Origin: an uncultured Pseudomonadales bacterium
GTDB lineage: Bacteria; Patescibacteriota; Microgenomatia; UBA1400; PJMF01
Assembly: GCA_964406075.1 (NCBI GenBank)
Contig: CAYOQI010000004.1
Span: forward strand, 57,718 to 121,717
Reading direction: 5' to 3'
Length of the DNA: 64,000 nucleotides
This document shows positions 4,616 through 62,405 of the stretch, in pieces. How positions within the stretch are numbered: the first letter of the stretch is position 1; each line of letters begins with the position of its first letter. The notes beneath the pieces are model-generated. The model saw only the letters and a list, made by a program, of their open reading frames with translations, ran no database searches and had not been told where the DNA came from. Made by a program: the position numbers and the translations under genes.

Positions 4616-4771
4616 GACTCATCCGTTTAATTATTTCCATTGAACTAGCCCAGTTAACTCATTGCCAAAATCAGTTTTATTGGTTATATTCTCACCCTTG
4701 TCCTTACAATCTTTCTCTGGATCTCTTGCACTATAATTGACATTTTCATTATTATAGGATATAATCTCCGC

Positions 4772-8817: not shown

Positions 8818-8867
8818 ATATAAATAGCCTTGACTTTTTTATAAAGAGCAATGAGAATGATGTCTAT

Positions 8868-9197: not shown

Positions 9198-9303
9198 AAT
9201 TCTCTACTTCATTGATCATTTTTAAAAAAAACATAGATCTTTAGAATTTTTTTAGTTATTACCCACTAGTTTCGTACACGCTTTCCGCTGTTATACTACA
9301 AGT

Positions 9304-12564: not shown

Positions 12565-12576
12565 TTGATTTTAAAT

Positions 12577-34902: not shown

Positions 34903-35838
<936 letters not shown>

Positions 35839-36771
35839 TTATTAAGAATTTTCTCAATAAATGTCCAACCTTTGAACGATGTGTCTAAGTTTAAAATTTA
35901 AGAAATCATTAATTATTTCATTCACATTTTAAACTTTCTCAATGCAAATATTTTTAATATCACAAGGATTTTAAAATCAGCCTTTCTGTTATCATCCGTC
36001 ATTTTTTTGAATCACTTTTACGATGATCCTATATCATTCAGTGCTCAATGAGACGATAACAATTCTTATTGATTCCAATTTAGGCTTCAAATAACTACGA
36101 CTGAGTCCAACACTCTTCTTTTTTAATTTTCTCAAACAGAAAAGGAAATGAGTTTAAAATTACTTCATTTATATTTTTATATAAAAACAAAATTCTTTTT
36201 GAAAACAAGTTGATTGATTTTCATATATTCAAAAAATAATGATTGAGTTTGGTTTAGCAACTTCATCATTTGCTTCCACTCTTAGGTGATTTCTTTATCA
36301 CATAACACAAACGCATGCGTTAATAAACTATATTTGCATTGATAAATATTTTTTCTATCTTAGATTATATTTTTAACGATTACTGTTCTTGCGATATTAA
36401 TTGTTGCGTCTTCGGCTGAAATAATCTTGTGCTATTTTCAAAGAGTCTTCATTCCGCATTCATCACATAAACACCCACTGAAAGATTTTAACGATTTTAA
36501 AAAGACTTTGTATCAATTGATCAAGCAACTTGAGCGAAAATAATTTACAGAATCAAATGAGAGAAAATATTACCAGCAGGCTAAATATGTGAATAAAAAT
36601 GTGTTCGTTGTGAACTTTTATTTGTATTTTATTCGGTAATAATTAAACATGATTATTACGAAACACAGTACACCTCTTGACACCATCAGGTAAAAAATGC
36701 CTTAATGAAGTTGGACAAAAAATGTGACAATTGCTCTTAAAATGTCCCACATTTCGTAAGAACGTAAAAAA

Positions 36772-48700: not shown

Positions 48701-51700
48701 CCGATGGTCTGTTGATCAGAGCAACAACAGATGGTTCATTAGTAGATGCTATTGATGCGTCAGATGCAGAAATTACCAATGCCTTAAATATTGGGGCAAA
48801 CACAATCTTAGGAACAACTGGGGTTATCGATTTCACTAACTTTGATGTTGCAGCTACAGGTGCGCTCTCACTCTCTACCGCCGGAAATACCTCAGCCTCC
48901 TTCACCAGAACATCTGCTGGTCAATGGATGGCATTCAACGATGGCACCGATACTTGGGGTATTTACAACACCGCTGGTAGTCCTGAAGCATCGTTGACCG
49001 CAAATACTGGAGCCCTCGCAATGGATACAACCAATGGAACTCTCTATGTCAAAACTGATGATGGCGATAACACAGGGTGGGTAAACCTCGCTTCCGGTGC
49101 TTCTTCACCTTGGACTGATTCAGGGACGACTTCCTACTTAACCGATACTACAGATGAAGTAGTGATTGGTGGAGCTTCCCCACTTTCCAGTGCCAAATTT
49201 TCAATCGATGGAGATGCGGATCAAACTCAACTACTTGTCCAAGGCAATGCAACTCAAACCACAGACCTCGCAATCTTTGAGAACTCAGCGGGAGCAGATC
49301 AATTCAACTTCAGTAATACTGGAAACTTGATTGCAGCTGGAGACATTACTGCCACTGGTGGAACATTCAACGGTGCATCTGGAGAAAGTATTGACCTCGG
49401 AGTCGCAAGCTCAGATGTCCTCACCTTCACGACTGGAGCCTCAACTGAACTACTCCTTTCCACAACTAACTTAACAGCTGGAACAGCTGAAGGAAACTCA
49501 CTTGGATCTGCAACAGTAGAATGGGAACAACTCTTCCTTGGTGATAACAATGGAATTTCCTTTGGTCTCGATCAAGATTGGTCATTTGGTTATGATGAAG
49601 CTACAGATGATCGACTTGAATTAATCACAGCAGGAACGTCTGGAATGTTAATCCAATCCGCAACGGCTACTGGCAACGGATTAGCACTTACTTTTGATTC
49701 ACTCTCAACCGGTGAAGGACTCTACTTGTCTTCTACTTCAACAGCATTAACATCAGGTGGACATCTTGGTCTCTTCGAGTGGAATCCTGGAAGTGCCAGT
49801 TCGACCACCGCAGATCTGTTTAGTATCAATATTGGAAGTAACGCCACTGTGCTGGGAGATATCTTTAATGTTCAAGATAACGGCTCTGATCTTTTCTCCG
49901 TTGGAGAAGCTCAAATTACCTCTGCTCTTCCCCACTCATTTACCGCAGCCGGCGATGTATCAGTGGCCTACGATCTCCAATTTACCAATCAAACTGCTAG
50001 TTATTTGAAAACATACGGCCCACTTCAGATCGAAGCTGGTGAATCGTTTGAATCAAATAACTTAACGATAAAAACATATAACTCAGGTGACGTCGTCATT
50101 GATCTACCAGCCACCGGCCAAATGATCGTACAAGGTGCGTTCTCAATTGGAGATCAGCAAACACTTCCTGCCGGAACCACACCTTCCGTAGCCGGTGGTT
50201 CACACTACATTGGAAACGCGAATGGATTGATCACCAACTTCACCAGTGGAACTGCAGGTCAGATCCTAGTACTTGAGTTCGATGGAACTTCGACTGACCT
50301 CGACTGTAGCACTGCCGGACCGATTCGTTGTGGAAGTACAGATATCACTACCCAACAAGCAGCCGGTGACATCATTACCTTCATTTATGACGGAACAAAC
50401 TGGAACATGATCGAGTATGTAGCACTGGACGCAGACTCTACAGCTGGAGCTGACCTTGCCGAGTACTACCCCGCTTCTGAACACTTAGAGCCAGGTGACA
50501 TCGTCAGTATTGATTCAACTCAGCCAGTGATGGTGGAAAAATCTCACGAGTCTCATCGTCAACGAATAATGGGTATCGTATCAAGTGATCCAGGATTATT
50601 ACTTGGTGAAGAAGCGGATAATTCTTACCCCATCGCCTTGGCAGGGCGTGTGCATGTAAAAATGTCAGAATCATCTGAAGCTATTCAACCCGGCGACTTA
50701 GTTGGAGTTTCTCAGGAAACCGGAAAAGCCAAAAAAGTAAACTCTGGATATACAGTTGGCCGTGCTCTTGAATCATGGGATCCAAACTCTGGCGATCGAG
50801 ATGTGGTGGTATTTGTGAACTTATCATATATTCCCGTAGATTTAGCTTTAAATAATGATGGTCAAGTCAGCTCAAGCTACTCACTTATTACGACGGATTC
50901 TCTTGAGTACGCGATTCGCGATCTGAACAATGGACAGGATATTCAACAAACCTTAGTCTTGGCCGAATCATTGATTGGACGACTGGAAACCGGAAGTATA
51001 GTTACTCGAGAATTACAAGCTCAAAGTATCGAAACTGAAGACTTCCTCACGAATAACGCCACAGTATCTGGACAACTCAATGCCAACTCTGCAGAAATTA
51101 ACTCATTGAGATTTGAAACCGCCACAGTGGCGGGTCAACTTTTCTTATCAGATGGACGAAGTGTCGGCTCATTACTGGATGAAAATGATGCCTACTTAGC
51201 TTCCCTCTCAGCTCAGACCCAACAACTCGCACAATCATTTAGTGAGCAAACTGTCCCAGGCACATCCACAGCCTTTGATGAATTCCTCGCTCAACTGACA
51301 GGTACAGAAGACGCTTCTCTCTCAGCTGCCTTAGCAGCAATTCAGAATCAAGAAGATATTGAACTCGATGCAGAAAGCATGGTCCTGGCACCAGACGCAG
51401 TCTTTGTCAAAGAATACTTGAATGTCACCGGCTTCACTCAATTAACTACGGCCAGCATTTCTCAATCACTTACTGTGGGAGATGGTTTACTCTTAACTCA
51501 AGATACGATCGCCACAGCAGAGGAAACACTCTATATCCAACCAACTGCCGGATCACTGAACTTACTCGCCGGTTTGATGACACTCACTCCAGATGGAAAC
51601 GTCACGATTAACGGTGATCTGACTGTTACTGGAATCGCTTCCATTACTGATGGAGTGAAAACTAGTCAGCTCTCTCCAAATGACTTTACGCAAGATTTGA

Positions 51701-52173
51701 CAGTCAAACTTGCATCAGAATCAGCCTCAGTCTTGGGCACAACTGATAGCTCAGAGTTCCAGATTTTGAACGCCAGTAACTCAGCAGTGGCCAGTATCGA
51801 TGCATCTGGATCCGCCAAGTTCTCTAGCATTTCAACTGAAGGCTTAGTCTTGAAACAACCTCAGTCAGAGGCATCATCCTCTGCTCAACGACAAGCTGAA
51901 ATTGCTCGCAAACAAACAGCGGGACAATTAACTCTTGAGGCTGGTGAAGTCACAATGGAAATTGAGAATGATAATGTTGAAGACGACAGCTTGATTTATC
52001 TCACTGCAACTTCAGATACTCAAAACCAAGTCATGTATGTTGGAGAGAAAGAAACCTGTGCATTTGCTGGCCCAACCTGTCAAACCAGCTTCACCGTAAA
52101 AATTAATCAACCGATTGCTACAGACATTAAGTTCAACTTCTGGATTGTAAATGTCTCAAAACAACAGCCGTAA
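36772..52173 (+). CDS. Giant (5133 aa) membrane-anchored repetitive surface fibre protein. N-terminal MerR/excisionase-type HTH, then a TM helix, then about 4900 aa of Thr/Gly/Ser/Asp/Asn-rich repeats, then a distinct C-terminal domain.
   Basis: Uninterrupted 15.4-kb ORF. Residues 10-55 (VSIHEAAKFLKVSTKTLRRWEDRHILLPARTSGGHRRYDL) match the HTH_17/MerR-like motif. TM helix WVSVSIVLAFFFISAAAFSIQGFF at about aa 165-188. Repeated modules such as TINSGGDLTIGSIGLNDVGSDNITSGASLVGVFDEFTNS..VQDVLDDLDAAIGAGASKW occur at least 7 times. Confidence 0.85.
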   Translation: MIPSDLPPLVSIHEAAKFLKVSTKTLRRWEDRHILLPARTSGGHRRYDLNEIKAFKKQKYSSGSVVHQTVLPLATVKPLESKVVDQTDILQVSKPLIIKPIDHFPLKTPKVTAYKPFPETITKVKKTFEFPSFQVRNNIPPQVEIPTEKITDFPIPTTPPSWVSVSIVLAFFFISAAAFSIQGFFKPLVAKHPVLSEIAYSLEKRLAINVFPKKEVMIVQANDSKVLGEHSSLDFLKFNINVESSFREFANFLSDVNVEGNATVSGILSVNSGSLQTTSETAQVFENASTLSIAANTGTTTVNNSLNVGGNLTVIGLINDIAGTLNLSGNTLTSTGDLVIDPGGGGVSIGDATPGIIDMTDGDFFVSGDVEIDGILYAPTANISGTASIGTVLVNSDSINDFTGTGLTVSDGALQTTIGTSVSSSEIENDTILEEDLKVSNDAVNGYALTYDNSTGGFTWTDIASSQVWIDGGSVYYQATTTDDVVIGGTSSLGKLSVDGDSDEIQLVVQGNGTQTSNIFVVEDSSGTDLFVVNNTGSITIASGQDLTIGSIGLNDVGTDNVTSGASLIGVFDEFTNSSATTLQDVLDDFDAAIGGGASKWAQDTGFVYLASTTDDIVVGGDTIANGSLYFDESAGSLYLGTNEALNGSLTLYSSGAGITDPTITADATGNANITTSATALVNILAGNLKVGNGAPTQTLNGEDAYVEGTLEVDGILYAGSATTALTVASGLIDADAIALTPTTEGLSGISSGSGLAVYSDTLSLLQGCGDGQVLKWNETNDSWECANDTGASFAVVNIENNDVAVGSNVDSIDFSTDFLVTASPSNEANVAIADDILNFTEFSDALTLDAATTITNSLAGNLTIDLTSTGDFVIADGGVAFFTFTDGGALTQAGSGQITLTGNVDATNGLDITGASLTVGGANATITTGGALTLASTITAATDETINGVDINAGTVSDVVNLTINSGGDLTIGSIGLNDVGSDNITSGASLVGVFDEFTNSSATTVQDVLDDLDAAIGAGASKWTDSGTVTYLTDTTDSITIGSSTELGKLAVDGDADEVQLLVQGNGTQTNALAIFEDSTGADQFSISNTGNVTLAGDLTISGGNITSATTFDSTATVTGTLTANGTLDANGIFTLGDNGETGAIDTSDWDISATGVLTGVSGITTDGGYTQSGATGNTFSGNVDATSGLDVTGASLTVGGANATITTGGALTLASTITANTDETVNGVDINAGTVSDVVNLTINSGGDLTIGSIGLNDIGSDNITSGASLVGVFDEFTNSDGLNVQDVLDDFDAAIGAGSSKWTDSGTVTYLTSTTDDLAVGGSTVLASMFGIDESAGNFYFGYDNSVSPTFNFEASDGDAGEFGFNTNDTFFFSNARVGVGTTNPSRLLHVSDSSGSPAIRVTGSASGSPFIEFEQSGNVRGVFGYDNTTSTLQLAYGANFSTTFLSLNSSGSMGLGTSAPDAALEINHATGDSLRLTYNDSNGSATSYTDFSLASDGDLTIDSAGGAINLGANDDLNITASTDLIFGGSTSLGESTGAADSGAFLTGIFDEFDNSASSTVQDVIDDIDAAIGNRTYTADNYVTDGQTLTASINALDIALASVSGGAYTGWSIDVDDDGADPIASGATLNVDAGSNVSLTYTAGTNTLLIAATDTNTTYTAGNDLDLTGTVFSLETTLDFVDTINLAGTGTLNGLDAVDATGENTIEALIFDTDAESITGVWTVADSTNFRIGTGGDLTFAHDGSNSTITSTTGDLLIDNTNATGSTIFDLGTDTSATDFLIRNDSGTQLLSLNGAGALQLGSNGQDGQFILYNELGVTDYTNTINPSGSQSQNITYTLPPDDGGADNYVLTTDGNGVLQWESVTGAGGGSGDLTDIIAGNYIDVQNAGGPSPTVDFDPTELEGVTWGASSGASEPFTWTYDVTNSGTDPSITFADNAITLTAATLTASGDLTIQGGDATLGMAGTDGSLTFYNELGATDRSVIFNVSGSQSEDIVYTLPPDNGAADNYVLTTDGSGVLQWESVSGAGGGTGDVTDIVAGNYIDVQNAGGPSPTVDFDPTELESVTWGAQTGASFTWTFNASSGTDTSIAFADGSISPTLAATGLFNVLTGNLKVGNGTPGLSLDGEDAYIEGTFEVDGASQFDGALTTNGTLTANGQFTLGDNGDTGAINTSDWDISTTGSLTGISGIANDGSYTQTGSSANAFTGVTTFNTDVDFTFADTENIAITNTVTGTNGLDLISAIITNQTSSGTQRGIVISNANDAANASTESLIFLDNAETTASTLTDAILITSSGADGGIVDAIDVSAGNITNALNVGGNNIIGTTAVINFDNFDIDGSGNLVTAGTLTAATNETINGVDINAGTVSDVVNLTINSGGDLTIGSIGLNDVGSDNITSGASLVGMFDEFDNSASTTVQDVIDDIDAAIGNRTYTADNYVTDGQSLTASIDALDVALAAVSGGAYTGWDLDGDSGTAETIANGNTVNILGGTNGIDTVVSATDTLTINLDTTEIGTSTFGSGSGFTWTFDAGATDPTLAFASNAITIGGAATLNFGGTLDLGTNTLSDGNFNGNWAFNSGNLSGIGTIGASGAITAATDETINGVDINAGTVSDVVNLTINSGGDLTIGSIGLNDIGSDNITSGASLVGVFDEFTNSDGLNVQDVLDDFDAAIGAGSSKWTDSGTVTYLTSTTDDLAVGGSTVLASMFGIDESAGNFYFGYDNSVSPTFNFEASDGDAGEFGFNTSDSFFFSNALVGIGTASPSEQLEVGGNIELTAAVPRLAFDNTNGDNDWYIQASATGFQFRNSSDNVNYLLINQTGLVSIGGDDSPDYLLELYDATATPTFALSDDDVTHGLTTLAQTDVFSHLTSLSTTAGGAELTTISDTDAQALSIRGVIGSTDPTDTTPAVKLVGAKSNGTTGMADLGAAETVFQVANNDDASALTILGNGNVGIGDTTPAALLTVGTSDALQIDASGNVVTTGTVTAATNETINGVDISAGTVSDVVNLTINSGGDLTIGSIGLNDVGSDNITSGASLVGVFDEFTNSSATTVQDVLDDLDAAIGAGASKWTDGGAITYLTATTDDLAVGASNTLTAPFSVDVSANLVRIGTGSTANAQLDMYASDGDTGSLIYNTSDQFNFTGGDVLIGQALTVTGTTTANGAFDANGQFDLGDGGDAGTISATTLDIDATGALQINSSGGAIGIGNDAVAQAINIGTGAAARTITMGNNTGASALQLTSGTGDITLTSTDDILFTPTDDMLATFAAGSAFTIDAATTDTTVTGGVLALDVDAGNAAVIGIDLDFSQSSGATTGTDAIGQNIAVSANDADGDVFGLSIRSNATANAGVGSYEALIRLINAEDTASAVTDAILIDSTSGVDGDIIDAIDVSDANITNALNVGANNIIGTSAVINFSSFDVDASGNTIIGGTLDVTGISTLVGNLNANGGLDVDNAFVVADGGVLTTSQTANFDGTADFDGAADFSAGVTNSAGEFLVSGGNLQLNDNINLTVGTGDDLTIVHNGTNTLLTSVTGDLIFDNTLVTGSTIFDLGTDTSATDFLIRNNSGTQLLSMNGAGAFQLGSNGQDGQFILYNELGGTDYTNTINPSGSQSQNITYTLPPDDGGLNYVLTSDGSGVLTWQSVGGIGAGGDLTDIVAGNYIDVQNATGPSPTIDFDPTELETVTWGAQAGSSFAWTFNASSGTDPVMTFADNAITLTAATTTLSGDLAINGGNVTTATTFDSTLTATGTLTANGALDANGQFDLGDGGDAGTISATTLDIDATGALQINSSGGAIGIGNDAVAQAINIGTGAAARTITVGNNTGASALQLTSGTGDINLNSADDIFLSPSDDLTAFITAVGQFTIDAATIDSQNTLGAFRLDIDSSTSGTIGFLTNFRAIDDDAADILYANRTDVTIQDDTTASDTVYGNYISLIQNDTTPATTYGLAVVAEDAGTSPVSTGILIENLQATDIDLTDGLLIRATTDGSLVDAIDASDAEITNALNIGANTILGTTGVIDFTNFDVAATGALSLSTAGNTSASFTRTSAGQWMAFNDGTDTWGIYNTAGSPEASLTANTGALAMDTTNGTLYVKTDDGDNTGWVNLASGASSPWTDSGTTSYLTDTTDEVVIGGASPLSSAKFSIDGDADQTQLLVQGNATQTTDLAIFENSAGADQFNFSNTGNLIAAGDITATGGTFNGASGESIDLGVASSDVLTFTTGASTELLLSTTNLTAGTAEGNSLGSATVEWEQLFLGDNNGISFGLDQDWSFGYDEATDDRLELITAGTSGMLIQSATATGNGLALTFDSLSTGEGLYLSSTSTALTSGGHLGLFEWNPGSASSTTADLFSINIGSNATVLGDIFNVQDNGSDLFSVGEAQITSALPHSFTAAGDVSVAYDLQFTNQTASYLKTYGPLQIEAGESFESNNLTIKTYNSGDVVIDLPATGQMIVQGAFSIGDQQTLPAGTTPSVAGGSHYIGNANGLITNFTSGTAGQILVLEFDGTSTDLDCSTAGPIRCGSTDITTQQAAGDIITFIYDGTNWNMIEYVALDADSTAGADLAEYYPASEHLEPGDIVSIDSTQPVMVEKSHESHRQRIMGIVSSDPGLLLGEEADNSYPIALAGRVHVKMSESSEAIQPGDLVGVSQETGKAKKVNSGYTVGRALESWDPNSGDRDVVVFVNLSYIPVDLALNNDGQVSSSYSLITTDSLEYAIRDLNNGQDIQQTLVLAESLIGRLETGSIVTRELQAQSIETEDFLTNNATVSGQLNANSAEINSLRFETATVAGQLFLSDGRSVGSLLDENDAYLASLSAQTQQLAQSFSEQTVPGTSTAFDEFLAQLTGTEDASLSAALAAIQNQEDIELDAESMVLAPDAVFVKEYLNVTGFTQLTTASISQSLTVGDGLLLTQDTIATAEETLYIQPTAGSLNLLAGLMTLTPDGNVTINGDLTVTGIASITDGVKTSQLSPNDFTQDLTVKLASESASVLGTTDSSEFQILNASNSAVASIDASGSAKFSSISTEGLVLKQPQSEASSSAQRQAEIARKQTAGQLTLEAGEVTMEIENDNVEDDSLIYLTATSDTQNQVMYVGEKETCAFAGPTCQTSFTVKINQPIATDIKFNFWIVNVSKQQP
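40462..40862 (+). repeat. 401-bp perfect intragenic direct repeat, copy 1. Copy 2 is at 44590-44990. Similarity continues at about 85% for about 100 bp beyond.
   Basis: Base-for-base comparison of the two stretches, from gttgatattaatgcagggactg through tctgatggtgatgc. Confidence 0.85.
44590..44990 (+). repeat. 401-bp perfect intragenic direct repeat, copy 2.
   Basis: Identical to 40462-40862. Confidence 0.85.
46276..46442 (+). repeat. 167-bp perfect intragenic direct repeat. Copy 2 is at 48067-48233.
   Basis: aatggtcagttcgatcttggagatggtggcgatgctggaacaatttctgcaactacg through ggcactggtgctgcagc is identical in both copies. Confidence 0.85.
48067..48233 (+). repeat. 167-bp perfect intragenic direct repeat, copy 2.
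   Basis: Identical to 46276-46442. Confidence 0.85.
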
Positions 52174-52447
52174 AACACTTGCCGAACTGAATTCATTTTT
52201 GCAATTTCTTCATGAATACTCTTACTTTTCAGATTGAATTGGTATTTTTTGAACTCTGAGATCGAATATGAATATTTTTTATACTCAAAAAAGGGTTGAT
52301 CAATAAACATTTACTACTTTTTAGAAAAATAAGAATACAAACTCTCTTCAGTTTTTTCTCCACAAATTTCTTAATTCTCCTCTGGTATTTCTCAATAATA
52401 AAAGCAGATTAAGTCGGAGATTTTTGGTATTATGTAGATAGAAATTC

Positions 52448-55400
52448 ATGTTCTCATTTCGTCGTCGCCCACTATCTTCCGTATCTAGAAAACGCTCACC
52501 GAAGGTAGTTGTTCTCTTATTGTTGTTAACACTGCTTTTACTCCCAATCGTCTACAGCCTCATTACACGTCCCAATCAAGGAACAGCTGCACCACTCAAC
52601 GCGACTGAAGATTCTACTTCCATCACAATTACATCCCCAGGAAAATATCGAGCAGTGATCCAAAAAGGCGATACCACAGATTACATTCTTTTTTATGATC
52701 TAGCTGAAGATGCCGGTAACCCTGATCCGACACATGAGTTTAAGGGCCCGTGTGTTTTGGAAACAAACACGTATTGCCTGCGAGATGATAGTAACCGAAT
52801 GACAACACTGATTGAGGTGACAGACACCGTTGTGAAAGTTCGGGTCATGGGCAGATTCAATAACGAAGCCAGTACTGATTATCTTGATGATGATACGCCA
52901 CTCTATTTCCCTGAAGTGATCGAAAACTATGCGTTCACTCGTGATGGAGTAAGTGTCATGAACCGTACGGACTTCGCTACGGGAACTGGTGTCACTTTTG
53001 ATGCAGATTCTGGGCACAACGGATATGACTGGCTCGGTGTGTACTCAGATGTCACCGATGGTGCATACGATGACACCGCCAATAATAACTATGGTGATGG
53101 TGCGACTGAGGCTCAAATATCCGCCGATGGAGAGTTTTCTAATACCAATAGTTACTTTCACATGCCTGGAACTGGGAGCTCTACCTACCAAGACGCCTTT
53201 GTCGGTATACATCGAGATGGTTGGTATAGCGATTTAAACTCCAGTGGTGTCCATGAGTGGAATTGGGATGAGGCTGAATCAGGTACGCAGGATTTAATCA
53301 CAGCACAAGAGCAAAACTACAACTCCAGCAGACGTCATGAGGCCAAATGGTATTTCCTCCTGAAAAGTGAATCAGATCTTGATACTGAAGCCGAACGAGA
53401 AGCTTTGAACAATGAAATGATCAATGCCGATATACTCTCCTACACCGTAGGTGAAACGTCCTACGAGATGCCGGTGACTGCAACTGCAATCAATTTTGAT
53501 GCGGATACTGATTACGTCAACGTGCCTGACAACTCAGCCTATGATTTTGGTGATACAGCAGACTACTCTGTTGAAGCGTGGATGATGAGAAATGGAAACC
53601 CTATTTCAGGTGATAACCCCATTGTCTCAAAACGGCTCTGTTGTGGTGCTTCCGGCTGGGAATTCCAGATTCGACTTTCAAGCGCACGAATGCGTTTGCA
53701 AATGACTGATGGAACAGATACGTATGATCTTGAAGGCAGTACGGTTCTTAGTGACCAAACTTGGTACCACGTTGCAGCCGTGTTTGATCAAGACAACGCC
53801 AGCAATAGCATTATCTATATAAACGGTGTTGCAGAAACGATGACTCGGACAGGGACTATTGGAAATTTGGGCAGTATGGCAAGTACCGCTGGACTCGGTT
53901 TTGGTGTTGGTGAGCCTGGTATTGGGAACTATAACAGTTTTTCCGGCCGAATAGCTGAAGTACGAATCTGGGATGATGTGCGAACAGCAGCTGAAATTCG
54001 CGAAAACATGTTTCGACAAATTGACCCCGCATCAGCAAACCTAGTGGGATACTGGAAACTGGATGAAGGGACCGGAACTGCAGTACATGATTCCAGTGCA
54101 ACCGGTGCGAATGGAACAATTGTTGGAGGTGCCACTTGGGACTCAGTCAATGAACGTAAGGCCGATCACTTCAATGAATTTGAATTTGCCCACACACTTC
54201 AGTCAACAGCCCAAAATGCGCAGTACGATATTGATGCTGGAGCATCAAATGTCTCAACAACAGCCAATGGTGCTATTTCCGATAACGCGACCACAGTCAC
54301 AGTTACCTCCACGACAGGCTTTGCCTCTTCGGGAATTGCCTACATTGATGGAGATAAGTTTAGCTACACTGGAACCACTGCCACGACATTTACCGGTGTT
54401 CCCTCTTCTGGTGAACACAGCGTAATTGCTCATGTCACAGGAAGTGTGGTCGCTCAGTTCACGCGAAGTAACACCAACTTTAAGGTTGGTGGCTACCAAT
54501 CCACTGAGAAACCTGCGCAAATTACCAAAGAAGGTATCTCGCAAAAAGAAGGGGTCGATTTCTCAGCTTCTGTAAAGCCAGTAACGGATGGCTACTTTGC
54601 CCAAGACTTAAGTTTTTATGCAGACTTTGCAAGTACGACAGTTGACGTTGGTTCAAACTTGACCAATAGCGGATGTACCCTGACACAAGGTGGCAATGAC
54701 TACACTTTAGGATTTATCACCGTATGTGATGGTGGCTCCGATGACATGACATTTACCTCAACAGGCAATATCGACTATGCCAAAGGAGCCCTTGAGTTTT
54801 CGATCGCGGCATTCAGTACCAGTGCTGACAGTACCGAACGTACATACTTTCGCATAACCGATGGCACCGATGAGTTTCGATTTCGCAAAACATCAGGCAA
54901 TACTTTAGAGTTTTTAATTGATGAAGGCGCTTCCACCTATACAGAATCTATCTCAAGTGCAAACTACAGTTGGGGGTTTTTGGACACTGTTCACATTCGA
55001 CTGGAATGGGATGACAGTGCCTCTACCACAGAAGATGAAATGAAAATTTACATCAATGGAAGATTACCGACCTCCACAGATGCGAGTGGTTTTACCGGTG
55101 CAAATGTGTCTCCTGGTACCACCTTCCGTTTAGGAAATAGTGCAGACTCTGGAGGTACGCACTGTAACTGCTTGATCGATGAATTCAAAATCTATGACTT
55201 CAACGGCAGTGGTGATCAAGTTGGACTGGCCAAGGTTGGAGCCGGTGGTGGAGGTGGTGATTATTTCTATAACCCAAATAATAATCTGACGCTTTCTTTT
55301 GCTCCGGTGGACGCTGGTAATCGAGGTGAGTATCTCTACTTAGGCGCTGATGCCAAAGTCAATGGATATAACTTTGATCTTGCTACCAATGGTGTTGGAA

Positions 55401-58400
55401 GTTCCTTAAATCTTGATTGGGAATACTGGAATGGTGTCGCTTGGACAAGCTTAGAATCCATTGTTGGCTTTACAGATACGACAAGTAACTTAACCCAAAG
55501 TGGCACCGTGTATTGGACTGCTCCACCGACCAACTGGAGACCATATGCGATGAACAGCAAAAATGAGTTCTACTATATTCGAGCTTCCTTAAATGCAGCA
55601 TCTGGTACGTACACCACAAGTCCTGTCGAAAATAGAATCACCACAACAACTCTCTACATTCGAAGCGACACGACACTTAATCTTGAAGATCAAACGTTTG
55701 TCATTCCCACCCAATTCCAACCATCTGTTTTCTGGAAAATGGATGAAGGTCAAGGAACAGCAATCAATGATAGTACTGGGAATAAAAACGACGGAACACG
55801 CCTCAATGCGGTGTGGCAAACGGAAGATATGTGTGTTTCAGGAAAGTGTCTCTATTTTGATGGGAGTGGCAGTCCAAGAGACTATCTGTATAGATTAAAT
55901 GATGACAGTTTCAACTTTACAGCCAGCGAAAGTTTCTCAATAAGTATTTGGATAAAACGTGAACCAATATCTACAGACCCGAATGTGATTCTTGCAAAAC
56001 ATAACTCAAGCGGTGGTGGATATAAAATTCGAATGGAAAATGATGGTGATATCAGTTGTGGAATTGATGATGACAGTACGTACACCCCTGATGCTGAGGC
56101 AATTAGTACGCTCGCCACCTATGATGATAATCAATGGCACCACATCGAGTGTGTCAAAGATGGTACTTCAAGTTTGTCGCTCTATATCGATGGAATACTT
56201 ATTAATACCAACTCCTCTATCTCTGGAGTAGGAAGTCTTGTAAACACGCAACCGTTTTACCTTGGAAATGGCGGTGACGGTTTATCAGATGCATTTAAAG
56301 GCTTCATGGATGAATTCAAAATGTATCCCTATGCTCGAACTGCAGATGAAGTAAAAGCCGACGCTATTGCAGGCGCTGGAAATCGTGGCTCCTCCGCTGT
56401 ACTCGGAGCACAGGACACCGCATTTCTAAATGACGGCTTAGCCGGTTATTGGTCACTCGATGAAGGAACCGCTAACTCTTGTAGTGGAGGAACAAACGAT
56501 AGCTGTGATAAATCTGGCAACAATAATGATGGTGCTTGGCAGGATAATGCCACAAGTACGCGTGGTAAGTTTAGTCGTGGCACAATTTATGATGGAACCA
56601 ATGACAATGTCACCATAACTGATCCAACGTCTGGGACATTAGATTTTGGGACAGGTGATTTTACCGTGTCAACCTGGGTGAACTTCAGTGCTATCGCGAA
56701 TGGAAGTACCCTGCTTGGGAAAAACTTCACTGGTTCGGGAGCCGGGTATGGTATGCGTATACAAACCACTTCCCCGACGATATGGGTGGGAGATGGTGCT
56801 ACTACGGCTGAGCTTGCCCACACGGCAGTACTTTCAAACTCTGCCTGGTATCATGTTGTTGGTGTCAGGAAAAACGGCACATTATATATATACGTGAATG
56901 GTGTACAAGGCTCATCCACTGCATCTTTTACTGGGAATGTGAGTACCACAGGAAATCTGTATTTGGGGGCCAGAGGAACGGGAGCAACAGCAAATATGGC
57001 TGGAAGTTTAGATGAGGTGAGAATATATAATCGGGCCCTTGCTCCTGCAGAAATAACTACTTTATATAACTGGGCACCCGGACCGGTAGGATATTGGAAG
57101 CTGGATGAAAATACGGGTATCAGTGCATATGATTCATCAGGTAATGCTAGCACTGGCACTCTCACAAATAGTCCAACCTGGACACCAGGAAAATTTGGTT
57201 CTGGAGTCAATTTAGGAGGAAATAGTTCCAATCATTATGTGAGCATTGCCGATAATGATCTCTACTCTCCTTCACTCTTTGCAGGAGCTACTATCCAGGC
57301 CTGGTTCAATCAAGACACCGCAACTGCAGCCCGAGACTGGATTGTGGCGAAGGGAAACACAAGTAACTTCGAGTGGGGTCTCGCCGTAAGCAATGGTGTT
57401 CTCTATTGTGAGATCTGGGATTCATCTGGTAGTAGTCAAGCCCAAGTCGTTGCAGGCGTGGTATCCACTGGAGCATGGCACTTCGCCTCTTGCACCATGG
57501 ATAATACCAATGGTGTTTATCTCTATCTTGATGGAGTGTTGCAGGGATCTTCCCCAGGACTTACTGGTGGAATGAGTAATACTACCTCTGCTGTACAAAT
57601 TGGTAATCGTGCCGATGGTGGAGACAATAATTTTGACGGAACTATCGATGAAGTAAAAATCTACAACTATGTTCGTACTCCCGGCCAGATGCTTGAAGAC
57701 ATGAATGGTACTCACCCGGTTGGAGGCTCCCCGGTGGGTTCTCAAATACTTAATTGGAAATTTGATGAGGGCAATGGAACCACAGCAAATAACGAAATAA
57801 CTGGTGGAACAAACGGCACCCTTACCAGTATGGCCACTGCCCCATCGACTTCTTCTTCAGGGTGGACTGCCTCAGGAAAATTTAATAAAGCCTTAGTTTT
57901 TGATGGGACAGACGACAAAGTCGTCATTGACACTGCAAGCGACGCAAATGTGGACTTCAATGCAAGTGAACAGTTTTCTTTGTCGGCCTGGGTGTACTCC
58001 ACCACTGTTCCCACTACTGCAACCGACGAGGATTTAATTATAGGAAAATGGGACGAAACAAGTTCTCAACGTGCATACAGAGTGTTCCTCGAAAATGATG
58101 ATACTGATTCAACAGGTCACATCCGAGTTGAAGTCATGGATGAATCCACCGGAGGAAATGAAATTCTCTCAGCAGTTACGAGTAATGACACTATCTCACA
58201 AAACACTTGGTATCACGTCACCATGACATTTAATGGAACGATCACTGGAGCTGCAAATAGTCTGAAGGTATATCTAGATGGCAAGCAACTTGGTACCAAC
58301 GCAGCGAATGCAAGTTTCGTAGGTATTGATGACGTCACCTCTGATTTCACGGTAGGTGATTATGATGCCACAGACAGTGACGGAGATCTTGATGGCTTTA

Positions 58401-59968
58401 CTGGTCGAATAGATACTGTGCAAGTGTATGGTGCAGAGCTTACAGCAGATCAAGTAAAAATTGTCATGAATGCGAACTCCGGTGTCAACTTCTCTACGGG
58501 TAGAGTTGAAACTGATCAGTCTATTGATGGAACACCATCAAACATAGCTGGATATTGGAATCTGAACGAGAACACAGGGACAACAGTGAATGATACATCT
58601 GGTAATGCAAACGCATTAACGATGAGTGGTGTGTCTGCTAGCTCTTGGGTACCTGCCAAATACGGATCAGGCTTGTACTTCGATGGAGCTGATGATTATC
58701 TCTCTATTGCTGATGATGCTGATTTTGATTTTGCTGCAGTTGATAGTTTTACTATTTCTGCCTGGGCAAAAAACTCTGGCTCACTTGCTTCAAGTCAACA
58801 TATTTTCGTCAAAGGTGACACCACTGATGGGGGCTGGAAACTCTACTTAAATACTGCCGGAAATTACTGTGTCCATTTTGCAGACAACATTAATAATGCC
58901 CCGACTGACTCAGCGTGTTCTTCATCAGGAGGATATGACTACAATGACAATCAATGGCATCACATTACTGCAGTGAAAGTAGCTAACTCTGAACTGCATC
59001 TCTATATTGATGGTGTGCTGGTAGCCTCTGATACAGCATTTTCATACTCCGGAACACTTGCAAACACTGGATCCTTATTGGTGGGCATAGGACAAAGTAC
59101 TACTACAGAAGAATTCACAGGTATCTTGGATGAATTAAAAATTTCGAGAACACCACTTACTGCCTCCCAAGTAGCTTTTGAATACAATCGTGGCCGTTCA
59201 CTAGCCTGGTGGAAATTTGATGACTGTACTGGAACTACTGCATACAATGCTGCCCAAAACGGTAACGGCGATGCGATTGGAAGTAATGGCACCATTACCA
59301 TAGGTGCAACCGGTTCCAACACATCCGCAGGTTCTTGTAATGTCGTGAACACCGCCACAGCTTGGTACAACGGGTTGGTCGGTAAATTTAATAACTCCAT
59401 TGATTTCGATGGCACTGATGATTATGTTTCTGTCGCAGATACAGAGATACTTCGACCAGAGGCAGGTAGCTGGTCCGTATCCTTGTGGGCAAACCCTGCA
59501 AATATCAATCAAAATTCTCCACTTATTACCAAGCGCCTAAACAGTGGGAATTTTGAACAATGGTCACTCTATATCTGTGGAAACATTGGATGTAGTACCG
59601 ATGGACAGCAAGTGCGCTTTGCTTTTGTTGAGGCCGATGGAACTACTGATCGCAAAGCACTCAGCACTCTAGACGTTGTTGATGGCAACTGGCATCATTA
59701 CGTGGGCATAGCCAGTAAAGACGATGACTCCATTATTTTATACAGGGACACAATAGAGCTAACTTCAACTTCTACAACAAATGGTTCCTGGCCTACTGTC
59801 AATAATACTGATCCTGTCCGCATCGCAAACGACAATGGAAGTGTTTACTATAATGGTCAAATTGATGATGTGCAGGTTTTTAACTATACTTTGTCTCAGG
59901 AACAAGTTAAAAAATTGTATAATGAAGGCTCTAGTGCTCGGTTTGGACCAGAAAGTGGAACTCCTTAA
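52448..59968 (+). CDS. Giant (2506 aa) secreted multi-LamG (concanavalin A-like lectin/glucanase, Laminin_G_3-type) domain protein with an N-terminal signal anchor.
   Basis: N-terminal RKRSPKVVVLLLLLTLLLLPIVYSL. At least 8 repeats of the LamG_3 signature: [LV]xGYWKLDEGTGTxxxDSSGNxNxGT, then FDGxDDYVxI, then F[ST][IV]SAW, then W[HY]H[VI], then LY[IL]DGxL, then (E/D)[VE][KR]IYxxxLTxxQV. They start at about aa 370, 520, 1090, 1300, 1500, 1720, 1960 and 2230. Confidence 0.85.
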   Translation: MFSFRRRPLSSVSRKRSPKVVVLLLLLTLLLLPIVYSLITRPNQGTAAPLNATEDSTSITITSPGKYRAVIQKGDTTDYILFYDLAEDAGNPDPTHEFKGPCVLETNTYCLRDDSNRMTTLIEVTDTVVKVRVMGRFNNEASTDYLDDDTPLYFPEVIENYAFTRDGVSVMNRTDFATGTGVTFDADSGHNGYDWLGVYSDVTDGAYDDTANNNYGDGATEAQISADGEFSNTNSYFHMPGTGSSTYQDAFVGIHRDGWYSDLNSSGVHEWNWDEAESGTQDLITAQEQNYNSSRRHEAKWYFLLKSESDLDTEAEREALNNEMINADILSYTVGETSYEMPVTATAINFDADTDYVNVPDNSAYDFGDTADYSVEAWMMRNGNPISGDNPIVSKRLCCGASGWEFQIRLSSARMRLQMTDGTDTYDLEGSTVLSDQTWYHVAAVFDQDNASNSIIYINGVAETMTRTGTIGNLGSMASTAGLGFGVGEPGIGNYNSFSGRIAEVRIWDDVRTAAEIRENMFRQIDPASANLVGYWKLDEGTGTAVHDSSATGANGTIVGGATWDSVNERKADHFNEFEFAHTLQSTAQNAQYDIDAGASNVSTTANGAISDNATTVTVTSTTGFASSGIAYIDGDKFSYTGTTATTFTGVPSSGEHSVIAHVTGSVVAQFTRSNTNFKVGGYQSTEKPAQITKEGISQKEGVDFSASVKPVTDGYFAQDLSFYADFASTTVDVGSNLTNSGCTLTQGGNDYTLGFITVCDGGSDDMTFTSTGNIDYAKGALEFSIAAFSTSADSTERTYFRITDGTDEFRFRKTSGNTLEFLIDEGASTYTESISSANYSWGFLDTVHIRLEWDDSASTTEDEMKIYINGRLPTSTDASGFTGANVSPGTTFRLGNSADSGGTHCNCLIDEFKIYDFNGSGDQVGLAKVGAGGGGGDYFYNPNNNLTLSFAPVDAGNRGEYLYLGADAKVNGYNFDLATNGVGSSLNLDWEYWNGVAWTSLESIVGFTDTTSNLTQSGTVYWTAPPTNWRPYAMNSKNEFYYIRASLNAASGTYTTSPVENRITTTTLYIRSDTTLNLEDQTFVIPTQFQPSVFWKMDEGQGTAINDSTGNKNDGTRLNAVWQTEDMCVSGKCLYFDGSGSPRDYLYRLNDDSFNFTASESFSISIWIKREPISTDPNVILAKHNSSGGGYKIRMENDGDISCGIDDDSTYTPDAEAISTLATYDDNQWHHIECVKDGTSSLSLYIDGILINTNSSISGVGSLVNTQPFYLGNGGDGLSDAFKGFMDEFKMYPYARTADEVKADAIAGAGNRGSSAVLGAQDTAFLNDGLAGYWSLDEGTANSCSGGTNDSCDKSGNNNDGAWQDNATSTRGKFSRGTIYDGTNDNVTITDPTSGTLDFGTGDFTVSTWVNFSAIANGSTLLGKNFTGSGAGYGMRIQTTSPTIWVGDGATTAELAHTAVLSNSAWYHVVGVRKNGTLYIYVNGVQGSSTASFTGNVSTTGNLYLGARGTGATANMAGSLDEVRIYNRALAPAEITTLYNWAPGPVGYWKLDENTGISAYDSSGNASTGTLTNSPTWTPGKFGSGVNLGGNSSNHYVSIADNDLYSPSLFAGATIQAWFNQDTATAARDWIVAKGNTSNFEWGLAVSNGVLYCEIWDSSGSSQAQVVAGVVSTGAWHFASCTMDNTNGVYLYLDGVLQGSSPGLTGGMSNTTSAVQIGNRADGGDNNFDGTIDEVKIYNYVRTPGQMLEDMNGTHPVGGSPVGSQILNWKFDEGNGTTANNEITGGTNGTLTSMATAPSTSSSGWTASGKFNKALVFDGTDDKVVIDTASDANVDFNASEQFSLSAWVYSTTVPTTATDEDLIIGKWDETSSQRAYRVFLENDDTDSTGHIRVEVMDESTGGNEILSAVTSNDTISQNTWYHVTMTFNGTITGAANSLKVYLDGKQLGTNAANASFVGIDDVTSDFTVGDYDATDSDGDLDGFTGRIDTVQVYGAELTADQVKIVMNANSGVNFSTGRVETDQSIDGTPSNIAGYWNLNENTGTTVNDTSGNANALTMSGVSASSWVPAKYGSGLYFDGADDYLSIADDADFDFAAVDSFTISAWAKNSGSLASSQHIFVKGDTTDGGWKLYLNTAGNYCVHFADNINNAPTDSACSSSGGYDYNDNQWHHITAVKVANSELHLYIDGVLVASDTAFSYSGTLANTGSLLVGIGQSTTTEEFTGILDELKISRTPLTASQVAFEYNRGRSLAWWKFDDCTGTTAYNAAQNGNGDAIGSNGTITIGATGSNTSAGSCNVVNTATAWYNGLVGKFNNSIDFDGTDDYVSVADTEILRPEAGSWSVSLWANPANINQNSPLITKRLNSGNFEQWSLYICGNIGCSTDGQQVRFAFVEADGTTDRKALSTLDVVDGNWHHYVGIASKDDDSIILYRDTIELTSTSTTNGSWPTVNNTDPVRIANDNGSVYYNGQIDDVQVFNYTLSQEQVKKLYNEGSSARFGPESGTP

Positions 59969-60142
59969 GCTTCTCTTCTTACGATCATTCAAGAAAGAAA
60001 CTCATTCAGTAAAACTTCAGTTTCCCTCTTACATTTTTCTCTCTATAAACAAGCTTTTTTTTATGAATTTTCTACTTGTATCTCATTGCAAAATACCGGT
60101 ACAATGACTACTTAATATAGTGAAGGTAACTTAATACGCACC

Positions 60143-62296
60143 ATGGCACAACCGTCCACTCGCCCACAATCACTTGATCTCATCATTCCCAAGCTCGTTG
60201 AATATATGCTGTATGGAGCAGTGATTTTAACTCCATTATTCTTTTTACCGTTTCTGCAAAATATTTTTGATACATCAAAGTATGCCCTGCTCTTGATAGT
60301 CACATTGATTTCACTTGGACTTTGGACGGTAAATACGTTGAGACATAAAGTATTACGATTTACTTTTCATCCTTTTACCTTTCCATTAATTCTTTTATCG
60401 TTCAGTATTTTAGTTTCTTCAGTATTGTCACCGGTGTATTTTCTTGAAGATTTTGCGGGAATTTTTGGACTCATCTTTTTCTTAAACTTACTTATTCTGT
60501 TTGGTTCAAGTTTAGTAAAAGTCAAACAAAGTAAAACATTTATTGATATGGCAAGTATTGGGGCCATTTTATTGAGCATCGTTTCTCTTCTCCAGCTCGC
60601 TGGAGTTGGACCAACAGTTGCATTAAATTCTTTACTGACCTTACAGTTTCCAAATACTTTTGCATTCTCTCCCGCTGGATCTCCATTGATTGGTTTATCT
60701 GCATTAGTAACCATCTTGGTACCAATGGTTGTGATGTTGGTTACTAATAAAGCATGGAAAGAAAAAATTCCGACAATGGTAGCTACTGCTATCGTCGCGA
60801 TCGGAGTACTTCTTCATGTCGGAGTAATGGTTGCAAAGCCTGAATTTCGACCTAACCTGCTTCCTTTATCAGCAAACTGGTTAATCTCCGTAGAAATTTT
60901 GAAGAACCTCCCCAGAGCCCTTTTTGGAGTTGGTCCTCAAAATTTTATGGATGCGTATGCTCAATTTCGACCAGTGAGCTTAAACAGTAATGACACATGG
61001 CAACTACTCTATCAATCAGGATCAAACACTCCATTCTTTATTTGGGTCAGTGTCGGGACTGTGGGATTGATTGCTTGGATCTTACTTTTTATTCAAAGTT
61101 TACTATTGCTCAAATCATCTCCAATATCCGCTCGCCCAGTTGGAATCATGGTCGTCACTGCTTTTATTATCGAGTTATTTATTCCGTTTAATATTGTCCT
61201 TGTCGCTCTACAAGCACTGGGTATGTTGTTCTGGATCGCGACACTCAGAGCTGAGCATCATCCCAAAAGTTCAGATATTGTCGTTAGCTTAAATGCCTTA
61301 AAAGTTACTCGCCCTGAAGACTACCCAACAGAAAAGAGAATGGGATCTTTGACATACATCACCACATTTTTTGTTCTGGTTGTAATCGCAGTCAGTACGT
61401 ACGGTCTCTTTAGAGTTATGGCCGGAGAGTTTTTCTTCTTCCAATCACTCCAAGCTGCTCAAGCTAGCGATGTCAAAAAACTGTATGAGATTCAACAAAA
61501 AGCCATTCAATACAATCCATATCGAGATATTTATCGCAGAACCTATGCCCAAACCAACTTTGCAGTGGCATTAAATTTGGCTCAAAAAGAAGGTATTACC
61601 GAAGAAGAAAAAGCCACACTTTCTAAATTACTTCAGCAAGCAATTCGAGAGGCTCGTATTGCCGCAAGTTTGAACCCTGCTCGCTCAGTCAATTGGAGAG
61701 TTTTAGGTGATATTTATCGAGGATTAATTGGTTCAACCAAGAATGCCGAACAGTGGTCAGTCGCATCATATGTCCAAGCCGTTCAAACTCATCCCAATGA
61801 CCCAACGTTGCGTGTTGATCTAGGTGGAATTTTCTTGAGAACCAAAAACCCTGATCAAGCAGCTCAATTGTTCCAACAAGCAGCACAGCTCAAACCAGAT
61901 TACGCCAATGCCTACTACAACTGGGCCCAAGCATTAATTTTACTCAATCGACCAGATACAGCTGTCTTAGCGTATGAGAAAGTTCTCACCTTACTTAAAC
62001 CTGATTCAGCCGATTACGTCAAAACTCAAAAGGAGTTAGTGGATTTGAGAGAAAAAGCCAAGGCCGCTGCAGCTGCTCAACCAAAACCACCTGCTACTCA
62101 AACCGCAACTGGATCAGCTACGACACCCACACCTCAACCAACACCAAGTAATACTCAACCTGAGGAAGCTGCCTTACCTGAGTCAGTCAAGCCATCACCA
62201 GGTTTGTTAGATCAAGAACCTGAAAATGTCCAGCTCGATCCTAATCAAGCCAGTCAATCAGCCACTCCCCAACCCAATCCAACTGCTGCTCCGTAA
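60143..62296 (+). CDS. Wzy_C-family polytopic membrane protein with a C-terminal TPR repeat domain and a Pro/Thr/Gln-rich tail. Candidate O-antigen ligase or protein O-oligosaccharyltransferase.
   Basis: About 11 TM helices. External loop LFGVGPQNFMDAYAQF matches the Wzy_C GxGxxNF motif. C-terminal TPR-like helices (AAQLFQQAAQLKPDYANAYYNWAQALILLNRPDTAVLAYEKVL) are followed by low complexity (PKPPATQTATGSATTPTPQPTPSNTQPEE). Confidence 0.6.
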   Translation: MAQPSTRPQSLDLIIPKLVEYMLYGAVILTPLFFLPFLQNIFDTSKYALLLIVTLISLGLWTVNTLRHKVLRFTFHPFTFPLILLSFSILVSSVLSPVYFLEDFAGIFGLIFFLNLLILFGSSLVKVKQSKTFIDMASIGAILLSIVSLLQLAGVGPTVALNSLLTLQFPNTFAFSPAGSPLIGLSALVTILVPMVVMLVTNKAWKEKIPTMVATAIVAIGVLLHVGVMVAKPEFRPNLLPLSANWLISVEILKNLPRALFGVGPQNFMDAYAQFRPVSLNSNDTWQLLYQSGSNTPFFIWVSVGTVGLIAWILLFIQSLLLLKSSPISARPVGIMVVTAFIIELFIPFNIVLVALQALGMLFWIATLRAEHHPKSSDIVVSLNALKVTRPEDYPTEKRMGSLTYITTFFVLVVIAVSTYGLFRVMAGEFFFFQSLQAAQASDVKKLYEIQQKAIQYNPYRDIYRRTYAQTNFAVALNLAQKEGITEEEKATLSKLLQQAIREARIAASLNPARSVNWRVLGDIYRGLIGSTKNAEQWSVASYVQAVQTHPNDPTLRVDLGGIFLRTKNPDQAAQLFQQAAQLKPDYANAYYNWAQALILLNRPDTAVLAYEKVLTLLKPDSADYVKTQKELVDLREKAKAAAAAQPKPPATQTATGSATTPTPQPTPSNTQPEEAALPESVKPSPGLLDQEPENVQLDPNQASQSATPQPNPTAAP

Positions 62297-62321
62297 AGAA
62301 AGAATAAATTAAAAATTGAAA

Positions 62322-62352
62322 CAAAAAAGCTGACTAAAAGTCAGCTTTTTTT
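62322..62352 (+). terminator. Rho-independent terminator of the Wzy_C-TPR gene.
   Basis: aaaaaagctgactaaaagtcagcttttttta: stem agctgact/agtcagct followed by a T7 tract. Confidence 0.65.
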
Positions 62353-62364
62353 ATGGTGGACCGT

Positions 62365-62397
62365 GGGGGAACCTGCCTGCCGTCAGGCAGGTCGAAC
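62365..62397. repeat. Second copy of the GC-rich palindromic element (gggggaaCCTGCCTGCCGTCAGGCAGGtcgaac), immediately 3' of tRNA-Ala(CGC).
   Basis: Same core as 14134-14162 with one substitution in the loop. Same position and orientation relative to a minus-strand tRNA. Confidence 0.6.
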
Positions 62398-62405
62398 TCT
62401 CACTG

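Follow-up and report, generated by a model that had tools for sequence, protein, structure and literature searches.

A giant LamG protein with a rare conserved cassette and exchangeable distal modules, coded beside a fibre gene in a Patescibacteria bacterium: a candidate surface adhesin

What could a protein of 2,506 amino acids (aa), built largely of lectin-like modules and coded directly behind an even larger fibre gene, do for a bacterium of the Patescibacteria, or candidate phyla radiation (CPR)? The gene for this protein, here called the LamG protein, occupies positions 52448..59968 (+ strand) in a 64,000-nucleotide (nt) stretch of contig CAYOQI010000004.1, hereafter the window. The list of open reading frames (ORFs) and the translation give it an ATG start, and a protein search found the product identical to record P0001. 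CPR bacteria represent a large share of bacterial diversity, and the majority are believed to spend their lives attached to other cells. Apart from the type IV pili of Saccharibacteria, next to nothing is known, to our knowledge, of the molecules by which they choose and hold their partners. The locus offers a concrete candidate for such partner recognition, in the form of a conserved surface module of two and sometimes three genes. We lean, with moderate confidence, towards reading the LamG protein as a surface adhesin that has a conserved base and an exchangeable tip and acts as a module with the fibre.

Eight LamG modules were mapped along the protein, in agreement with the original prediction of a giant gene coding for at least eight of them. 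The Pfam scan recovered Laminin_G_3 (PF13385) in eight separate stretches, scoring 523.5 bits (cut-off 27.6; E=6.4e-159) and overlapped by matches to Toxin_R_bind_N, Laminin_G_1/2, Pentaxin and the Sialidase N-terminal domain, all of the same clan. Module borders were set by a hidden Markov model (HMM) built on a single module and searched against the full protein. All modules lie on the + strand. They are L1 (aa 334-535; 53447..54052), the divergent L2 (aa 731-940; 54638..55267), L3 (aa 1093-1330) and L4 (aa 1331-1547), which jointly cover 55724..57088, L5 (aa 1548-1766; 57089..57745), L6 (aa 1767-2033; 57746..58546), L7 (aa 2034-2256) and L8 (aa 2257-2506), the last two jointly at 58547..59965. 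Recurring motifs, originally ascribed to every module, each occur in only four to six modules (WKLDEGTG-like, FDGxxD, W[HY]H and LYxDG-like six times each, DE[VF]KIY-like five times and FS/TxSAW-like four times).

The LamG/ConA-like jelly-roll fold of the modules is supported by both sequence and structure, as had been foreseen. Among solved structures, a profile of seven modules found its best match in 4qvs, a ConA-like jelly roll named 'S-layer domain-containing protein' (E=2.7e-20), and it also matched the clostridial neurotoxin Hc-N domain (tetanus, botulinum), arabinanase domain 4, neurexin, pappalysin and pentraxins. A single-sequence phmmer search with the whole protein against the PDB returned no match at 1e-5.

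The description of the protein as an array of LamG domains overlooks about 610 residues that are not LamG at all and that define the family. They make up three domains, A (aa 45-333; 52580..53446), B (aa 560-730; 54125..54637) and C (aa 941-1092; 55268..55723), all on the + strand and all without a Pfam match. Together with the first two LamG modules they form the N-terminal part of the protein, a conserved cassette A-L1-B-L2-C of ~ 1,050 aa, in which A, B and C show the highest conservation of the entire protein. The predicted structure of domain A (predicted local distance difference test, pLDDT, 86; predicted template modelling score, pTM, 0.87) is a galactose-mutarotase-like beta-supersandwich, a fold tied to carbohydrate binding and processing. 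Its highest-scoring structural matches are the PL26 rhamnogalacturonan lyase 5xq3 (19.7), the GH38 mannosidase 2wyh (19.1) and the GH174 fucanase 8jd7 (18.3), with mutarotases, beta-galactosidase domain 5, OpgG/OpgD and hyaluronate, chondroitin and alginate lyases at about 14-16. Identity to these matches is only 5-12%, and 7-12% for 5xq3, 2wyh and 8jd7. Neither a sequence-family match for domain A nor a catalytic partner domain beside it was found, which distinguishes it from the three enzymes at the top of the list.

Domain B is a conserved all-beta domain with the motif AYIxGDKFSYTG (41-48% identity in orthologues) and has a marginal PHROG match to a giant virion structural protein (E=3.5e-4). 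Domain C is a conserved beta domain with the motifs NRGEYLFLGSD and LxWEYWNG (41-57% identity in orthologues). It has a weak resemblance to a phage protein (33% identity over 115 aa, pairwise E=8e-9), and may thus have module relatives among the tail or host-recognition proteins of phages. This relative is a 671-aa protein of a viral contig (L011, IMGVR_UViG_3300009509_000020, positions 9275-11290), coded directly 3' of the tape-measure gene.

The family is rare. Searched exhaustively with a profile of domain A, 1.84 billion representatives yielded 59 clusters, nearly all of them made up of proteins with 1,300-3,600 aa; 43 clusters reach E<=1e-30. A word-indexed protein search with domain A alone returned no matches, not even the source protein, as opposed to these 59 clusters; negatives of indexed searches are to be treated with caution for short, low-complexity-poor queries. 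A genome scan with a single-sequence query found one locus. The locus thus defines three unannotated domains and a rare family of about 50 clusters. The cassette recurs in 15 of the 109 matches to the LamG protein and is duplicated in two of them (P0007 and P0010). Six full-length homologues (P0002, P0003, P0005, P0006, P0008 and P0009) are collinear with it domain by domain and 33-37% identical overall. Between orthologues, identity amounts to 41-59% in domains A, B and C and to 28-46% in the LamG modules, compared with 22-34% among the modules inside the window protein. DNA repeats in 52174-62400 are short and only motif-sized. Taken with these identities, the repeats indicate that the LamG array is old and that each position has kept its own identity. 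Many of the more distant matches carry DUF2341, and the named ones belong to Patescibacteria, Roizmanbacteria and CPR3.

Comparison with L008 (CAZBKJ010000007.1), a syntenic relative, divides the protein into a constrained and a changeable part. Throughout the cassette, amino acid identity is high (88% in A, 94% in L1, 91% in B, 88% in L2 and 90% in C); from A to C, nonsynonymous divergence (dN) is 0.03-0.07, synonymous divergence (dS) 0.5-1.6 and dN/dS 0.04-0.11. Because dS is substantial here, the identity reflects purifying selection and not recent transfer. Modules L3 and L4 follow with 79% and 80% identity (dN/dS 0.08 and 0.11), and L6 with 69% (dN/dS 0.11). L5, L7 and L8 are only 43%, 37% and 40% identical, with dN of 0.53, 0.62 and 0.47, respectively, and divergence counted as saturated at synonymous and nonsynonymous sites alike.

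At these three positions, the modules of L008 find their best matches in other proteins. The one at L5 shares 71% identity with a P0029 module and only 44% with anything in the window protein, while those at L7 and L8 are closest to modules of P0015 (35%) and P0004 (54%). L6 of L008, located between swapped positions, still has its best match in window L6 (about 70%). This pattern speaks directly for exchange of whole modules in the distal array, with L7 and L8 as its swapped or hypervariable end. With an N-terminus located at the membrane, the modules that vary would be those furthest from the cell. A constrained base combined with a recombining lectin-like tip is the pattern expected of a determinant of host range or immune evasion.

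The LamG gene of L008 is seemingly split into three ORFs, and we considered it as a pseudogene. Both breaks fall precisely on stretches of N (10380-10389 and 12151-12168), so the apparent frameshifts are artefacts of the record. Variation driven by a diversity-generating retroelement was also rejected for the window locus: 52174-62400 contains no template or variable repeats, and Pfam scans of the window ORFs gave neither a reverse transcriptase nor Avd, the accessory protein of these retroelements. In two relatives, small genes for four-helix-bundle proteins of the 23S_rRNA_IVP/bAvd-like type are situated between giant LamG genes (L003, 3769-4155, 11819-12550 and 20671-21456; L009, 8983-9372). 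No reverse transcriptase was seen in the examined stretches of these loci, and the window has no Avd-like gene.

We have also addressed the question of whether the protein leaves the cell. Its sole hydrophobic segment according to Kyte-Doolittle (aa ~ 16-42) is part of an N-terminal export segment (aa 1-44; 52448..52579, + strand), in which an Arg/Lys-rich n-region and a 20-residue hydrophobic core are followed by GTAA. Orthologues have a similar segment ending in xAA (TQAA, VMAA, TLAA, SKAA, AKAA). The segment is plausibly an uncleaved anchor or a cleaved signal peptide, and fits export; the claim of a secreted protein is thus plausible as far as export is concerned, whereas the proposed signal anchor could equally be a signal peptide that is cleaved off. 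Acidic residues clearly prevail in the protein (306 D+E vs 137 K+R), which is also rich in Thr, Gly, Ser, Asp and Asn, and its cysteines are closely paired. This composition, the paired cysteines and the single hydrophobic segment plausibly match what is expected of an extracellular protein. The last 80 residues hold no LPXTG-like signal, and there is no C-terminal hydrophobic segment. Pfam gave no SLH or other wall-binding domain, and a regex search for the GH16 catalytic motif E-x-D-x(x)-E found none in the protein.

The start of the LamG gene lies 274 nt behind the stop of the 5,133-aa fibre ORF (36772..52173, + strand), which confirms the predicted tandem position. The fibre combines an N-terminal MerR/HTH_17 DNA-binding domain (aa 10-59) with a hydrophobic stretch near aa 165-185 and a giant, repeat-rich ectodomain (window positions 36772-37350 correspond to aa 1-190). 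In the AT-rich spacer between the two genes (52174..52447), examined by a terminator and promoter scan and by RNA folding, neither a terminator-like site nor a stable hairpin was found (RNA fold z=+1.04). Promoter-like matches occur there at chance level, so a promoter inside the spacer is conceivable. Downstream on the + strand (60143..62296) follows a gene for a 717-aa polytopic membrane protein with C-terminal TPR repeats, a Pro/Thr/Gln-rich tail and a GVGPQNF motif. Its homologues in L007 (26% identity) and L008 (32%) occupy the equivalent place. The spacer preceding it is also free of terminator-like sites. Not until the end of this set of three + strand genes does such a site appear, as a hairpin with A and T runs at its flanks (62323..62351); it was called on the - strand, and, as a near-perfect palindrome, it would also give a hairpin and T run on the + strand. 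Co-transcription of the fibre, LamG and membrane-TPR genes is therefore plausible, judging from the DNA.

The fibre-LamG pair is not peculiar to the window. A fibre homologue, identified by homology to the C-terminal part of the fibre (56% identical in L008), whose conserved region lies at aa ~ 4,150-4,700, is found upstream of the LamG orthologue in seven of the nine loci for which DNA is at hand (the window, L002, L003, L007, L008, L009 and L010). The distance between the two genes ranges from an overlap up to 139 nt in L002, L007, L008, L009 and L010, and three small genes separate them in L003. The two orthologues without a fibre gene (L001 and L005) follow directly after SSB; the proposed pairing thus gains comparative support without being obligatory. 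Wider synteny is maintained as well, with tRNA-Ala(cgc) kept downstream in L008, and ComEC, ComEA and LeuRS kept nearby in L009.

Combining these results, the adhesin that we favour would work as follows. The LamG protein would be exported and either held in the membrane by its N-terminal segment or released after cleavage of a signal peptide. Closest to the membrane would be the cassette, under strong purifying selection and led by the carbohydrate-handling-type supersandwich A, and beyond it a string of six further LamG modules, of which the outer L5, L7 and L8 are exchanged by recombination with other LamG proteins. As a multivalent lectin-like adhesin, it could bind glycans or proteins on the surface of a partner or host cell; carbohydrate binding by the LamG modules is what we infer from their fold. 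The conserved base would perform an invariant function on a conserved partner, for example by docking to the fibre or to the envelope of the cell itself, such as its glycan; there would be a multivalent lectin-like shaft, and the swappable tip would set or change ligand specificity or antigenicity. The protein would act with the HTH-anchored fibre and, in part of the lineage, also with the membrane-TPR protein, the genes probably being transcribed together. Within this model, the folds, the architecture, the pattern of selection, the exchange of modules and the synteny are results of the analysis, while export topology, ligand binding, adhesion, co-transcription and contact with the fibre are proposals.

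Several observations weigh against this proposal. LamG and supersandwich folds are also found in enzymes and in purely structural proteins. L008 is the sole reasonably close relative for the analysis of selection and swapping, and the comparison was made with no baseline of housekeeping genes from its genome; rates across the locus are very uneven, since the flanking membrane-TPR protein is only 32% identical. The structural model of B-L2-C is poor (mean pLDDT 58.5), with only L2 and part of B being confident. The two SSB-linked orthologues do without a fibre. Finally, in P0011, P0020 and P0023 the cassette is fused at the C-terminus, behind HTH and GT2 (Glyco_trans_2_3) domains, which hints at the handling of the cell's own polysaccharide.

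The last point leads to the strongest alternative, which we regard as unlikely. The cassette, together with the membrane-TPR protein, would act on the polysaccharide or glycoprotein layer at the surface of its own cell, by binding, guiding or modifying it, and the LamG modules would be carbohydrate-binding modules. The GT2 part of the three fusions is processive-synthase-like, the best structural matches of domain A are in polysaccharide lyases, glycoside hydrolases and the glucan-biosynthesis proteins OpgG/OpgD, rhamnose-pathway, GT2 and methyltransferase genes come after the locus in L007, and the window itself contains glycosyltransferase, flippase and Wzy_C genes. Against such a role, no catalytic motif was recognised in the protein (GH16 ExDxxE being absent by regex), and supersandwich domains are usually accessory and non-catalytic in the enzymes that carry them. 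Fast swapping of distal modules is hard to square with an invariant self polymer, and the membrane-TPR protein has neither a Pfam Wzy_C match nor detectable similarity to the Wzy_C protein of the window. An O-antigen-ligase identity, considered for this protein in view of its GVGPQNF motif, gains no support from either comparison.

A somewhat less probable explanation is an S-layer-like coat, in which the LamG protein and the fibre would form a fibrous outer layer and the modules would serve as building blocks instead of ligand binders. The name of 4qvs, the best solved match of the module profile, is in accordance with this, as are the size and very acidic nature of the protein and its location beside another giant surface protein. 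Moreover, giant proteins are thought to be behind the fibrous surface of CPR cells (PMC8080830). A coat protein of this kind is disfavoured by the lack of an SLH or wall-binding domain (Pfam) and of a sortase signal, despite a sortase gene in the window, and the rarity of the family and its hypervariable distal part suit recognition or immune evasion better than a lattice.

We give little credence to a more far-reaching reading, in which the fibre and the LamG protein constitute a contact-sensing device that wires host recognition to gene regulation. Here, the fibre would be a ToxR-like membrane-tethered transcription factor whose 4,900-aa ectodomain reports binding of a partner cell, and the LamG protein would dock on it via the cassette and supply exchangeable specificity modules at the tip. 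If true, this would mean direct wiring from recognition to regulation in an organism with very few conventional signalling systems. As an observation on its own, the N-terminal layout of the fibre is the topology of ToxR-type membrane-tethered regulators, and P0011, P0020 and P0023 also start with HTH domains, which are transposase-like.

The surroundings of the two orthologues without a fibre differ from those of the window. In L001 (1-27818) and L005 (1-25962), the SSB-linked LamG orthologues (P0009 and P0008) are found beside an AEP primase or an SNF2-type helicase and RadC. In L001, genes for an M23/PPC protein, pAgo (Piwi), a methylase and a helicase follow 3' of the LamG orthologue, and the block looks like an integrated mobile element carrying an adhesin. 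With these two loci, the phage relative of domain C and the ConA-like lectin genes reported in Patescibacteria phages (PMC12911398) on its side, the idea of a recognition protein of a conjugative or phage element, made for mating-pair or host contact and since fixed in the window chromosome, is nevertheless very improbable, for the locus sits amid housekeeping genes in the window, L008 and L009 with conserved neighbours (LeuRS, ComEA, ComEC, tRNA-Ala), Pfam scans of flanking ORFs gave no integrase, transposase or phage gene, viral contigs offered a single weak match limited to one domain, and the raised G+C (0.43-0.46) is limited to the two giant genes, where composition is the likely cause.

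The adhesin reading places the LamG protein among surface proteins of a recognised kind. CPR genomes are rich in pili, glycosyltransferases and concanavalin-like lectins, and giant surface proteins have been proposed as attachment factors (PMC12911398, PMC8080830, PMC11809585). With the CPR surface proteins that carry ConA-like/LamG and DUF2341 domains, the window protein shares the phylum, Laminin_G_3, giant size, a predicted surface location and a presumed role in attachment. Domain reshuffling has been suspected in giant proteins of P. danicum (PMC11809585), and the module-level swapping described here is comparable. Unlike the CPR giants, the window protein has no DUF2341 (PF10102, MJ1470-type) or FhaB-type domains in Pfam scans, and it possesses the rare cassette and a conserved fibre partner. 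No publication on the cassette or on the fibre-LamG gene pair was found in the searchable literature. The statement that the pair is not a characterised system can therefore be retained for the pair itself, and has to be relaxed for its general kind, because big lectin-like proteins on the cell surface have been recognised in CPR before (PMC12911398, PMC11809585, PMC8080830). The locus overturns no current view, lectin-rich giant surface proteins being already expected in this phylum.

Two archaeal systems offer further parallels. LamG-bearing giant SPEARE proteins are seen as attachment factors in DPANN episymbionts of the Nanohaloarchaeota (PMC6642349). Like them, the window protein is a giant, here possibly membrane-anchored, surface protein of an ultra-small cell, with laminin-G domains and a variable extracytoplasmic part, and the neighbouring fibre is SPEARE-like in that its huge ectodomain is joined through a transmembrane segment to a cytoplasmic domain. 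It differs in that Pfam detects LamG-type domains only, without serine protease, toxin or restriction-endonuclease domains, in that it lacks a cytoplasmic domain and in that it is bacterial, not archaeal; the relationship is one of analogy and not of family membership. TafC, which has been placed by modelling at the tip of haloarchaeal Tat-fimbriae and is proposed to have an adhesive LamG domain, has 373 aa with a TafA-like part (residues 1-146) and a single LamG (residues 203-360) (PMC11821415). Its similarity to the window protein lies in a LamG domain at the outer end of a surface structure with a proposed adhesive role. The TafC model NF052521 is the only NCBIfam model with a strong match to the LamG protein. 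Membership in this family was rejected: the match has 254 bits over 6 repeated stretches against a cut-off of 410, its best stretch covers profile positions 149-362 only, and the N-terminal donor-strand (TafA-like) domain is missing.

The modules also belong to the same ConA-like jelly-roll clan as the lectin-like domains of clostridial neurotoxins (Hc-N), sialidases and pentraxins. A reading as a toxin, based on the Toxin_R_bind_N matches (145 bits in 5 stretches), was discarded: they overlap Laminin_G_3 and express the shared clan only, no other toxin domain was found, and Pfam shows no protease, translocation or beta-trefoil Hc-C domain in the protein.

Judging from LeuRS and from the taxonomy of the LamG matches, the organism is a bacterium of the Patescibacteria (CPR). 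The LeuRS of the window shares no more than 74% identity with any other recorded sequence, and its named relatives are Patescibacteria, Pacebacteria and Paceibacterota, barring a few evidently mislabelled metagenome-assembled genomes (MAGs). CPR-type genes were encountered in records labelled 'uncultured Pseudomonadales', 'Pseudomonadales bacterium' or 'Vitreimonas sp.' (L008 and the LeuRS matches P0115 and P0190), which are probably mislabelled MAGs. The gene content indicates that the window is chromosomal, with housekeeping genes (ATP synthase subunits, iPGM, LeuRS, ArgRS, NDK, Obg, tRNAs), the competence genes ComEA and ComEC, and genes for the surface and envelope (pseudopilin, VWA protein, TrwB-like ATPase, sortase, glycosyltransferases, flippase, Wzy_C ligase). 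Rfam matches in the window are limited to four tRNAs. A horizontally acquired island was considered and rejected, the G+C rise being confined to the two giant genes and the chromosomal neighbours being conserved in relatives; the rise is likely due to the Gly/Thr/Ala/Asp-rich composition of the LamG protein.

Some additional features were noted around the locus. Upstream of the fibre gene, a 940-bp AT-rich region (35830-36771) is free of Rfam matches and of ORFs above 38 aa, with promoter-like hexamers at chance frequency; it presumably holds divergent promoters. The divergent gene beyond it (34903-35829, - strand; 308 aa) shares a block of ~ 100 aa with the C-terminal region of the fibre (50272-51171, + strand; 26% identity, pairwise E=2e-7). 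This block is kept in the fibre homologue of L007, and neither sequence has a Pfam match. In L008, a type IV pilin-like gene (GFTIIELLIVIAIIGIL prepilin motif; 19489-20025, - strand) lies between the membrane-TPR gene and tRNA-Ala(cgc), and no such gene is present in the window. Finally, a cluster at positions 8041-14076 of the window, with genes on both strands, may represent a second surface or pilus-related system; it codes for a sortase (8041-8817), a VWA-domain protein, a TrwB/VirD4-like ATPase of 716 aa, a pseudopilin carrying an N-methylation motif and two small proteins without annotation.

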